Shown here in pieces: positions 17,056 to 64,000 of a stretch of 64,000 bases of DNA. The notes under the pieces were generated by a model that searched no databases, was not told the origin of the DNA, and saw only the letters and a list, made by a program, of their open reading frames with translations. Position numbers and translations under genes: made by a program. The stretch is from Eledone cirrhosa. Lineage: Eukaryota. How positions within the stretch are numbered: position 1 is the first letter of the stretch; every line of letters begins with the position of its first letter. Location of the stretch: NCBI GenBank assembly GCA_964016885.1, contig OZ024743.1, positions 348,316,001 through 348,380,000 of the forward strand. Reading direction: 5' to 3'.

Positions 17056-17303
17056 GATCGGCTGTAAAGTAGGGTTTATTCCATGGATTAACAAATGTTT
17101 AATTAGTCCGGTGTGTCTAAAAACCGCTGTCCGCTGTATGCCGAGGCACTCTATTTTAATTACAGTTTACACCCAACCAAATTTTCAAAATACAGTATTT
17201 TGAGAATTGATTGTGTGTAAACTCGCGGACAGCGGTTTTTAGAGAAACCGTACAAATGAAGCGTTTGTTAATCCTTGGAATAAAACCTACTGTACAGCCG
17301 ATC
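17056..17303. repeat. Diverged fold-back palindrome, related to 52075-52310
   Basis: gatcggctgta..aaaaaccgctgtccgc / gcggacagcggttttt..tacagccgatc. Confidence 0.75.
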
Positions 17304-17713
17304 CATATTATTCTTCATTCCTTAAGGCGGTATGCCGGTTGAGCTCTCTATGTTCTTACAGAGCAGAGTGTGATATAATATAAAACGAAACATCAGTGAT
17401 GCATCTGAACTCAATTTAATGTGTGTTACAATTGTTTCGCCGGCAGACAGCTCGAGACAAGATCATTGTGTGGATCTGTCTGATTCTGGATCTGCAGGTT
17501 CACGTGCCGAACGATACTCCAGTTATATATATATATATATGTTTTTCTTGGCGGTAATTTATTTCCTCATTTTTGAATCAGTTTGAGTATTTCTCTAGCA
17601 ACCTAACAGATACATACCTCAGACTAGCAACCTAACAGATACCTCAGGCACTGATGATGATTATCGCTAAATACTGATGTTGGTGAGATTATCAATATTA
17701 GTACTATTGGGAC

Positions 17714-17842
17714 ACCCTCTGATGAATTATAGGAGGCCACTTGAATATATATCTATTGATGGTATACAAGCTCCTACATAAATTGGTATAATTTCACCCA
17801 AATTGTAGGAATCCTATAATGAAACGAGACGTCCGTCTGGGA
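17714..17842 (+). ncRNA. Type I hammerhead ribozyme motif with long stem II (stem I partly degenerate)
   Basis: ccct-CTGATGA-attatagga..tcctataat-GAAA-cg(agacgtc)cg-TC-tggg. Confidence 0.65.
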
Positions 17843-18384
17843 AGAGATATATTCGCTATGTCTCATATGAAATAATACAGCCAATTTTCCACGCAATACT
17901 TTTAGTTAGCACCCCGAACGTTACATTAAGAATATACTCACTTATTTCCTAATGTTTGTTGAGTGAGTTGGAATTTAGCCGGAGTATCGCTAAAAAGCTT
18001 TCTCCAACAATGTATTTATATATATATATATATATATATATATATATATATATATATATATATATATATATATACAGAGACCTGTCACCGAAGAAACAAC
18101 ACGTGTTCGGCAGGCTCCCTGTATCAAGAAAAGTAAATCTTTTTCAGAGAAAATATTGCATTCTTCCAAATTTAATGGGTTTTTTAGGGCAACTTTCAAT
18201 GTTTTTACACGGTTTGCTATCTGAAGAGATCAGGCTTTTATGACTGAAAGTCTCAGCCAAATGTGTATATTGGTGTTCTAAATAAATCTATATCGGTATG
18301 AATATAGGGTCTCGCTGTATCATAATCGCTCAATGTACACTTGGCGCGAAAATATAAAAAAAAAAGAAAAACAGTTCACTCTAA

Positions 18385-19680
18385 TCTATATATATATAAA
18401 TCAGAGGATGTCTGTGTGTCTGTTTCCCTAAAACTCGAAAAGTAGCCAAGGGTTGTTTTTCAAACTTTACACGTGTAATAAATATGACCCCGGAAGTGTT
18501 TTGAGCAAAAAAAAATTTCAAATTATTCTGTCCTAGGGATCGAATTAGTGAAGTGACCAATGTCTCTACATAATGAGGGAGTTAGAGGGGAGAGAAAGAA
18601 ACGGTGAGGCGAAGTGACGAAGTGGCTTTTTTCTCCTCTTCCTCCTTCTCCCATTCGTCACAGCGTTTTTCGATAGAATGTAAGTTACAAAGAGAGAGAG
18701 AGAGAGAGAGAGAGAGAGAGAGAGAGAGAGAGAGAGAGAGTGAAAGAAAGAGACAGACTACAAGAGGGGGATAGCGGGAGGGGGAAAGAGAGTGAAAGAC
18801 GCTGTCTTTTGATACTGTCAAAGATACTTGACGTATAACTATTAACAAGTGTGCGTGTGTGAGCGTTCCAATAAGAGTAAAATCTATTAACATGTGAGTG
18901 TGTGTATGTGCACATATGCGTGTGTGAGTTTGCCATATGTATATGTGTCTGTATCTGTATACACGTGTGTATATATATATATATATATATATATATATTA
19001 TTACTATTATTATTATATATATTTATATACATGTGTATATGTCGTCTGCTTCCCTTATGAGTTAGCGATCTCTTTCTCTTTCTCTTAGTCTTTCTCTTAT
19101 TAGATAGTAACACAGATATGACGTCGCGCCTTCATAATATCTGTCTGTATGCCTGGTGTCTGCATTACGTCATTATGACACGATCAGTGTGTGTGTGTGT
19201 GTATTCTTATGCCAGGGAACGTCTTCACGAACCAAAGTATCGTCTTCCTGTTTTCAGATTGATTTTTTTTTAGTTTAAGAAGATCCCGTTAAGGTTGAAA
19301 ACAGCGATTCTTTGCTTAAACATTAATATGTTATTTTAATATAGATATTCGTGTACAGATATTTTTGCATACACAAAAACAAAATATAAACAAACAAGGC
19401 CAAAGATTACATCAATTAGTCTTAGTGTATGTACGTCATACTGCTTTCAGATAGAATATCCCGTTAAGGGTGAAAGCAGTGATTATTTGCTTAAACTTTA
19501 GTCTGTTATTTTAATATATATATATATATAATTATATATTTATGGACAGATATTTTTGCATACACAATAACAAAATATAAACAAACGTATTTATTTCACG
19601 AGGTTCGATAAGGATAAATATATATTAAATATATAAGAACCCTATAGCAAATCCCGAGCAACGCCGGGCCATTCTGTTAG
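18385..19680 (+). mobile_element. Non-autonomous Helitron-like element with nested insertions
   Basis: 5' TC(TA)n..gtctgtgtgtctgt start; 3' hairpin cccgagcaacgccggg (19653-19668) then TTAG; inserted between A and T. Confidence 0.6.
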
Positions 19681-19694
19681 TAAACTATATTTGT

Positions 19695-63115: not shown

Positions 63116-63638
63116 TCATTATTATTATACATATATATAGATACCAACACACACACACACACACAAACACACACACACACGCACACACACACACACACAC
63201 ACACGCACACACACACACACACACACACACACACACACACATATATATATATATATATATATATATATATATATATACATTTGTATATACATTCAACCGG
63301 ATGGCTGGAACAGGTAAAGCAGTAAGAGAGTAATATATTTCTATATACATATGCATATATATGTATGTATTATATATATATATATATATATATCTATATA
63401 TATATATATATATATATATATATATATATATAGATATATATATATATATATATATATATATATATATATATATAAAGAATTAGTATAGCTACCAACATAT
63501 TTATACAGAAGTATACTTATGCTAGCAAGATATGTTTTTTGTTAGTAACTTTGTGGTTCAATACAAAAATGTAGAACAATTATATGAAGGACGTAAAATA
63601 AGAAAATTATAATAATTAACTTACTTACTTAAGTTTCA

Positions 63639-63716
63639 CTCCAACTAATTAGTTTCTGAAAGGGGATATACATAGTGTTCAAATCGATGGACAATTCCTT
63701 TCTTCATCAGGAAGTC
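63639..63716 (-). ncRNA. Type I hammerhead ribozyme (mirror copy)
   Basis: Near reverse complement of 63921-63998. Confidence 0.75.
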
Positions 63717-63920
63717 AATTCTATGCTAAGATCTCAGGCGATCGGCGGACACAGGGATCTCAAACAAAAATAATTCAGTGAATGGAAAAGAAGCAAGCGC
63801 GGACTAAATTTCAAGACACTGAACATTTTCAGGCCGCGCTTGCTTCTTTTCCATTCACTGAATTATTTTTGTTTGAGATCCCTGTGTCCGCCGATCGCCT
63901 GAGATCTTAGCATAGAATTG

Positions 63921-63998
63921 ACTCCCTGATGAAGAAAGGAATTCTCCATCGATTTGAACACTATGTATATCCCCTTTCAGAAACTAATTAGTTGGAGT
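63921..63998 (+). ncRNA. Type I hammerhead ribozyme
   Basis: actcc-CTGATGA-agaaagg..cctttca-GAAA-ctaattag-TT-ggagt. Confidence 0.8.
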
Positions 63999-64000
63999 GA

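Follow-up and report, generated by a model that had tools for sequence, protein, structure and literature searches.

Head-to-head insertions of Hydra-clade Penelope-like elements in Eledone cirrhosa and a twin hairpin as their candidate start signal for reverse transcription

Eight palindromes in a 64 000-nucleotide stretch of Eledone cirrhosa DNA (C4:348316001-348380000, referred to below as the window, in a 3.0-Gb, microsatellite-rich animal genome) raise the question of whether they are non-coding hairpin elements in their own right, as a preliminary description of the sequence proposed, or products of larger elements, and of what fixes their ends. The sequence comparisons make it probable that they are short head-to-head insertions of Penelope-like elements (PLEs) of the Hydra clade, or of derivatives of these that lack an open reading frame (ORF), in which the ends would be fixed upstream of hairpins and a dimeric reverse transcriptase (RT)-endonuclease would prime twice on one RNA. 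We also lean towards regarding a doubled hairpin as the RT start signal of Hydra-clade PLEs, which would dock two subunits, fix the priming sites, set the tail length, explain the partial tandems and let ORF-less RNAs ride.

The architecture of such palindromes is already published; it appears here in new, young Hydra-clade families and two non-coding passengers. Inverted 5'-truncated copies, one-sided tails of 30-40 bp and (TA)n targets have been described for PLEs (Craig et al., 2021; PMC8557442), and that paper lists Penelope-13_HM of the Hydra clade as carrying mirrored hammerheads together with a 5'-truncated copy in inverse orientation, as well as one octopus family, Hydra-1_Obim. A tail on one of two inverted pseudo-long terminal repeats (pLTRs) and head-to-head junctions have been reported, with self-priming as the proposed origin (Arkhipova et al., 2013; PMC3846280), and opposite-strand hammerhead pairs 100-700 bp apart have been ascribed to truncated PLEs (Cervera and De la Pena, 2014; PMC4209133). 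In vitro, the Poseidon protein PAc from Anolis nicks and extends both strands, and two internal starts bound the tail (Frangieh et al., 2024; PMC11167929). How PLE tails and inverted copies arise, and what determines where reverse transcription starts internally, are questions that PMC8557442 and PMC11167929 leave open.

All eight palindromes, together with several others, were recovered when the window was compared with itself after masking of simple repeats, and the preliminary description proved right about their positions, their layout and their lack of kinship. The paired arms are 96-99.7% identical (131/133, 207/209, 71/74, 151/158, 749/751, 181/188, 159/161 and 214/219), each tail-less end adjoins (TA)n, and each other end carries a one-sided tail of about 90-140 nt followed by (TA)n, while the best match between arms of different palindromes covers 39 nt at 79%. 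Palindrome 22043 (21955..22340) has its tail at 21955-22046 (-), arms at 22047-22174 and 22211-22340, hammerheads at 22143-22095 (-) and 22242-22290 (+), and the motif called hairpin 1 below from 22039 (-). Palindrome 30540 (30542..31110) consists of arms at 30542-30746 and 30758-30972 and a 138-nt right tail, with hammerheads at 30743-30611 (-) and 30761-30903 (+), and palindrome 31223 (31132..31362) of a left tail and arms at 31226-31293 and 31295-31362 with a hammerhead-like fold of U4A core. Palindrome 35723 (35723..36139) has arms at 35723-35880 and 35892-36049, a right tail and hammerheads at 35829-35779 (-) and 35943-35993 (+). Palindrome 40111 (40022..41622) has its tail at 40022-40110 (-), arms at 40111-40864 and 40872-41622, hammerheads at 40211-40157 (-) and 41522-41576 (+), and hairpin 1 from 40106 (-). 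In palindrome 52345 (52345..52827) the arms lie at 52345-52527 and 52549-52733, the hammerheads at 52443-52399 (-) and 52636-52680 (+), and hairpin 1 at 52741-52782 within a 94-nt tail. Palindrome 55248 (55110..55583) has a 142-nt left tail, arms at 55248-55412 and 55423-55583, and hammerheads at 55361-55308 (-) and 55474-55523 (+). Palindrome 63637 (63474..64000) has a left tail, arms at 63581-63808 and 63828-64046, so that it extends beyond the window (locus L166), and hammerheads at 63710-63643 (-) and 63926-63993 (+).

Mirrored type I hammerheads with outward-pointing 3' ends had been claimed for all eight. Seven of the eight palindromes carry them in both arms, with a CTGANGA...GAAA core (CUGANGA, GAAA and UH in the RNA) and with a short, palindromic stem III beside stems I and II. 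The claim does not hold for 31223, where CAGAAGA (U4A) replaces CTGANGA and the right arm has additionally lost GAAA; in this family, with 2652 first-look candidates, 55 of 60 copies have the U4A core and one of 60 has the canonical core, and stems II and III (the latter of 4 bp) are predicted for the U4A fold. A strict scan of the window for type I hammerheads gave 11 matches against 0.03 per shuffle (30 shuffles), and a relaxed scan brought in 55248 and 30540. Rfam did not confirm the hammerheads: none stands among the matches listed for the window (150 of 334), which are microsatellite and hairpin look-alikes only. Minimum-energy folds gave clean hammerhead stems in one of seven arms (52345) and partial ones in others. 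The hammerhead at 30761-30903 has a strongly paired stem II of 114-124 nt (about -38 to -43 kcal/mol) that holds 10-nt repeats; the 7-8 bp reported for stem II of PLE hammerheads is far below this. Among 166 arms, only one has its end 4 nt or less from the hammerhead cut; the queries for this set included the hammerhead and so biased one arm per pair towards greater length. Because no arm class stops at its cut site, the hammerhead, itself a predicted ribozyme, would be a passenger in these insertions, and the single arm at the cut is in line with uncleaved or re-ligated templates. Read-through transcription of the eight palindromes would give near-perfect RNA duplexes of 70-750 bp, on which editing or small-RNA pathways would be likely to act and in which the hammerhead fold would be masked.

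Where, then, do the arms come from? Each was searched across its own genome, giving 214-2652 first-look candidates per family, which are not copy numbers; the best 40 candidates were scored per DNA search, and the best matches are 89-100% identical. Near-identical copies including their flanks, 25-50 kb apart (L089/L091 and L244/L246), are segmental duplications, by which counts can be inflated. A search for full-length PLEs with the same termini had been suggested, and longer copies leading to an ORF were found for six families (22043, 30540, 31223, 35723, 40111 and 52345); the statement that the palindromes have no ORF thus stands locally, while these six families continue into their own ORF elsewhere. 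Palindrome 22043 is the end of an autonomous Hydra PLE with a unit of about 4.15 kb (loci L251, L282 and L243), 30540 that of a 5.58-kb unit (L241) and 35723 that of a 4.69-kb unit (L057), and at all of these loci the order is inverted copy, pLTR, ORF, 3' untranslated region (UTR) and pLTR. The inner arm of 40111 matches, at 100% identity, an element at locus L138 whose 821-amino-acid RT and GIY-YIG frame is intact and which combines a tailed arm with an inverted tail-less copy; the frame runs from stop to stop, with YRDD and a GIY-YIG-like C-terminal end. A Hydra-type endonuclease C-terminus lies upstream in longer copies of 31223 (L263, L271 and L279), and a Hydra-type endonuclease remnant upstream of 52345 in L136.

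Those of the family proteins that were compared are 33-61% identical to one another, and Pfam gave no match at threshold for the family ORFs, L138 included. They share with the Hydra clade, as set out in PMC8557442, the RW and DKT motifs (RLRWT and RVRWR, with RWK in most homologues, and SDKT, in L138, L060, L241 and L251), a CxCX5C linker (CNCRIKNKC, CNCRNRPDC, CNCRNKANC and CNCRNKSNC), CxxC and CxH around a conserved E and N (CNLCLNE and ICLH), a C-terminal GIY-YIG domain, (TA)n targets and a canonical pLTR hammerhead, the last in five of the six coding families, the exception being 31223 with its U4A core. Partial tandems (pLTRs), an inverted 5'-truncated copy and a one-sided tail are present in L057, L241, L251 and L135. 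An initial assignment to Nematis was dropped in favour of Hydra in view of these clade features. Several features differ from the available account of the clade: units are about 3.9-5.6 kb with long 3' UTRs, whereas generally less than 3 kb is given there; tails are about 90-140 nt rather than 30-40; stems II reach 124 nt; and there are at least six coding families here, each with hundreds to thousands of first-look candidates.

The proposal that the palindromes are non-coding hairpin retroelements moving as whole units is largely refuted and has become highly improbable. Short forms do prevail, 108 of 128 pairs spanning at most 700 nt, and 5' ends cluster by family, with truncation hot spots 62-72 nt (31223) and 202-211 nt (30540) upstream of the tail-less end; these two hot spots coincide with the 5' edge of hammerhead stem I, beside a T-rich run, and those of other families lie farther upstream, at about 170, 180 and 225 nt. 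However, inverted pairs of one family have many spacings, their centres differ between copies, their spans form a continuum from about 1 to 5891 nt between arm ends, and six of the eight families continue into their own ORF. Differing centres and spans indicate that each palindrome is made anew at insertion. By these alignments, six palindromes stand at the short extreme of a graded series of lengths in which autonomous Hydra-clade PLEs have inserted, inverted and truncated at the 5' end; there is no separate class of hairpin elements, and the palindromes themselves are ordinary PLE debris. The earlier interpretation is therefore partly supported: descent from PLEs, (TA)n targeting and the wording 'non-autonomous or ultra-truncated' were borne out, with six ultra-truncated autonomous elements and two palindromes from ORF-less units, and the idea of an independent community of hairpin elements was not.

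The two ORF-less sources are the families of 55248 and 63637, whose palindromes probably derive from non-coding PLE passengers. The former is the end of a 2797-nt tandem unit without an ORF, found whole at two loci (L135 and L132) with no PLE protein match below E 0.6; the latter has a unit of 509-524 nt, likewise without an ORF, seen as a period in 11 of 25 loci. Both keep hairpin 1 and hairpin 2, described below. Like non-LTR retrozymes, both are ORF-less tandem units with a type I hammerhead, and retrozymes have been proposed as PLE passengers (PMC7229834; preprint 10.64898/2026.07.22.740005). Unlike retrozymes as portrayed there, the units measure 0.52 and 2.8 kb instead of the typical 170-400 nt, only partial tandems were seen where dimers to multimers are usual, and insertion occurs with PLE tails, inversions, (TA)n targets and both hairpins.

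The ends of these insertions follow a pairing rule. With B denoting the tail-less end point and T the tailed one, loci fetched for the eight families were deduplicated and pairs were counted where at least 85% of the interior was family sequence. Of 128 head-to-head pairs, 117 were B+T, nine T+T and two B+B (p = 1.6e-23 against 0.5), at least two of the T+T pairs being internal pLTRs of tandems; (TA)n adjoins 205 of 233 B ends. A second insertion of the 30540 family in the window (20986..21235) has a tail-less arm with a hammerhead at 21188-21055 (-), head to head with a tail-only partner at 21194-21235. This rule bears on whether assembly or amplification could have created the palindromes as chimeras. 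In some cases the arms are 99-100% identical, and four public runs over 63480-64000 gave no joints and no record across the palindrome; nevertheless, the arms differ by substitutions, the fixed one-B-one-T asymmetry recurs at 117 of 128 loci and ends fall at identical bases on many contigs, which leaves chimerism barely credible.

Both B and T lie 2-12 nt upstream of a conserved hairpin. In unrelated families, the tails have in common, 7-12 nt after B, a bulged hairpin of the form RCTC-stem-YY-GAGYRC (hairpin 1), which combines a 4-bp helix (ACTC/GAGT, GCTC/GAGC or GTTC/GAAC) with a second helix whose sequence is free and has a 2-nt bulge on its 3' side. With the motif fixed beforehand, a held-out test on Hydra-like elements from metagenome contigs (78 loci from the best 80 of 508 candidates, found with 15 aligned sequences, three of them from this genome and the others 12 of 21 homologues) found it after 23 of 41 testable hammerheads against 5.07 expected. 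A refined pattern, fitted after that result had been seen, gave at least one hairpin in 17 of the 20 clusters with enough sequence (of 33) and two copies in 12, located 36-56 and 95-119 nt past the hammerhead cut, with 0/20 in an upstream control. From the second copy, a hairpin was predicted to follow T closely in this genome as well, and this hairpin 2 is present in all five families with a tandem copy, both ORF-less ones included. It carries an outer mismatch in 63637 and a long insert in 30540; in L138 it stands directly before the ORF. In these five families, 212 element ends run into (TA)n, and 195 of them fall 0-12 nt ahead of a hairpin (99 before hairpin 1 and 96 before hairpin 2). The spacing of the two hairpins is 92-144 nt across families here and about 45-70 nt in the metagenome elements. 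Over 38 hairpin instances 94% were paired, and 29 cells changed on both sides against 7.3 in shuffles; these counts back the outer and inner pairs. The published consensus Hydra-2_Amil ends with a hammerhead and the hairpin, and Hydra-1_Ajap starts with two hairpins.

The pattern by itself is not rare, with 11 matches in the window and 2-9 in shuffles, so its position carries the signal. It was absent from other short-stem-II hammerhead families of this genome (0/7, 0/6 and 0/3) and is therefore not general to all hammerhead repeats. Rfam on five metagenome loci gave two chance matches only. The motif could instead be part of a promoter, signal translation or regulate the hammerhead, insertions arising as proposed, and its position near B and T would then be a by-product of layout. 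Hairpin 2 does stand just before the ORF in coding families, and the core is near-invariant in sequence; yet two copies keep the same short distance to different end points though their spacing varies between families, and both ORF-less units retain the motif, so that we rate another job as improbable.

In the double-priming mechanism, a dimeric RT-endonuclease would hold two hairpins of a single RNA, tandem or circular, and cut (TA)n on both strands, and each cut 3' end would prime reverse transcription beside one hairpin. Both cDNAs would cross the hammerhead region, often stopping within a few hundred bases, and their 3' ends would be joined head to head by end-joining. Double priming would produce the outward-pointing hammerheads and the one-sided tail, the length of which (92-144 nt here) would be set by the hairpin spacing. 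Hairpin 2 would lie in the 5' UTR of the next unit, and hence only tandem or circular RNA would carry both hairpins; stumps without hairpin 2 would then be dead ends, and ORF-less units, which keep both, would be copied in trans. We infer that the protein binds the hairpins, and the parts given to hairpin spacing, end-joining and trans copying have the same standing.

The arms themselves bear on the choice between two primings and a single one. Among 102 B+T pairs spanning at most 1300 nt, the B arm is longer in 24 and the T arm in 25, 26 are equal, 16 have a tail-only partner and 11 could not be resolved. In 40 of the 91 resolved pairs (24 B-longer and 16 tail-only) neither arm contains the other, an outcome that fits two primings better than the derivation of either arm by copying its partner, provided that central deletions did not often follow. 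A related idea, in which a leading and a trailing RT make the B arm extend further 5' in every pair, was rejected on the 24 B-longer against 25 T-longer pairs (51/38/19 before deduplication). Of 75 junctions, 21 overlap by 1-6 nt, 20 overlap by more, 26 contain 1-30 nt of filler, five are blunt and three have a larger gap. Private variants shared per 100 nt are more frequent within pairs than between loci in 8/8 families (3-16 pairs per family).

Self-priming offers the strongest challenge here. The mirror arm would be made by snap-back on one strand, the endonuclease would trim the hairpin intermediate at B and T, and the motif would guide DNA cutting. The head-to-head junction palindromes of rotifer PLEs are read in this way (PMC3846280), the Drosophila tail is required for endonuclease recognition, as recounted in PMC11167929, private variants are common to both arms, and the 20 longer junction overlaps and the 51 of 91 pairs that are equal or T-longer would follow. 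On the other hand, the tail-only partners in 16 pairs share no sequence with the B arm, 24 pairs are B-longer, and in vitro RT starts on RNA at either end of the tail, with both DNA strands extended (PMC11167929). Furthermore, hairpin 2 never lies within a T-ended arm and so cannot guide the cutting of a T-primed copy. On this evidence self-priming is unlikely as the general route.

A number of observations nevertheless weigh against double priming at twin hairpins. The 25 T-longer, 26 equal and 11 unresolved pairs do not speak for it, and the 20 of 75 junctions with overlaps above 6 nt are explained by self-priming too. Later deletions at palindrome centres could mimic pairs in which neither arm contains the other, gene conversion could be the source of shared variants, and scoring the best 40 candidates per search favours young copies. 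Hairpin 1 occurs in seven of 13 window tails against 0.21 expected, which is not an independent test because the motif was defined on those tails. The three core pairs are near-invariant (36-37/38) and, scarcely varying, say little about pairing, and pairs changed on both sides were no more numerous than after shuffling (298/500). Eighteen of the 41 held-out cases lack the strict motif and three of the 20 clusters lack the refined one, which has the added weakness of its later fitting. Of six metagenome (TA)n junctions, four lie 6-8 nt before the hairpin, one at 0 and one at -64. Finally, the 31223 family fails the strict hairpin motif, and no tandem copy of 31223 or 52345 was found in which hairpin 2 could be checked.

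Poseidon PAc is the closest experimental parallel: it likewise has two internal RT starts bounding the tail, cutting and extension of both strands, AT-rich targets, a predicted dimer and a hammerhead dispensable for insertion (PMC11167929). It belongs to another clade, however, and its start region is one AC-rich stem-loop inside the ORF; the available text gives no motif repeated across families and no genomic pairing count, and the ends of the insertions here share 2-6 TA-like bases with the target, unlike those of PAc. In PMC3846280 and PMC4209133 self-priming on an antisense template is invoked, whereas the asymmetry here has been counted (117/128) and tied to two hairpins, and 40 pairs go beyond simple self-priming. 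The twin hairpin is not mentioned in the available text of PMC8557442, and the word 'stem-loop' is absent from the text of its supplement; the motif was not found in the literature searched or in Rfam, though subscription papers, figures, Repbase notes and supplements may mention it. The B+T pairing count, a hairpin beside each end, its recurrence in metagenomes and the retention of both hairpins in ORF-less units were not found in print and thus appear to be unpublished.

Other features of the window include the four coding remnants that had been put forward as helpers. They are mostly not the parents, since the six coding families have their own ORFs elsewhere, and a Hydra-like affinity holds only at 34.06-34.43 kb: there a GIY-YIG remnant (34061..34431, +) is 41-48% identical to the family proteins, although the sequence does not mark it as the parent of any of the eight palindromes. 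The inverted remnant at 32784..33448 (32.8-33.45 kb) belongs to another PLE type, whose 3' end is distinct and matches none of the eight arms (0/8), so that this very abundant PLE was rejected as a parent. The type (loci L038-L056; 12020 first-look candidates) is young, with frames of up to 664 amino acids, a fixed 3' end into (TA)n and inversions, and among the loci listed no canonical hammerhead was seen in its 3' UTR and no CTGANGA..GAAA core downstream. Its motif suggests that it is Neptune-like. A PLE-like RT remnant at 11383-12330 (-), with a weak Pfam RVT_1 match for 11.7-12.3 kb, gave no tblastn match to the Hydra or Neptune-like proteins tried and could be a Naiad remnant. The remnant at 53.6-54.05 kb is LINE-like (long interspersed nuclear element), with no match to the PLE proteins tried; it is adjoined by a small hammerhead-like core with a weak stem I (52985-52950, -), and a similar hammerhead-like reading follows an FADD-type RT in L135. 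Its coding part is presumably CR1/L2-like. An unpaired hammerhead at 25025-25098 (+) was found in the strict scan. A fold-back at 33696..33928 (second copy, 36177-36408) has a 75-nt one-sided tail and a GCTC/GAGC hairpin, with no hammerhead found. Further fold-backs or inverted pairs lie at 17056-17303, 52079-52306, 25446-25548, 27530-28750, 16143-16557 and 14749-14940, most with a one-sided extension and none of those scanned with a canonical hammerhead; those at 17056 and 52079 are old and seem to be related. Remnants of several non-LTR retrotransposons occupy 400-1464, 3373-6690, 23887-24700 and 59459-62850, and some short repeats resemble octopus SINEs (short interspersed nuclear elements).

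The part that seems worth following is the twin hairpin, a short and mutable target, which together with the intact young ORF of L138 offers a way to tackle the question of tails and internal initiation. Mobilization of retrozymes by PLEs is inferred in the available text of the retrozyme papers solely from co-occurrence and trees (PMC7229834; preprint 10.64898/2026.07.22.740005), and the hairpin, if the reading is true, would provide a concrete signal for the mobilization of non-coding hammerhead RNAs. Internal initiation in the telomerase-related PLEs would then also have its first defined cis element, and double-ended insertion at (TA)n a tag that is portable.

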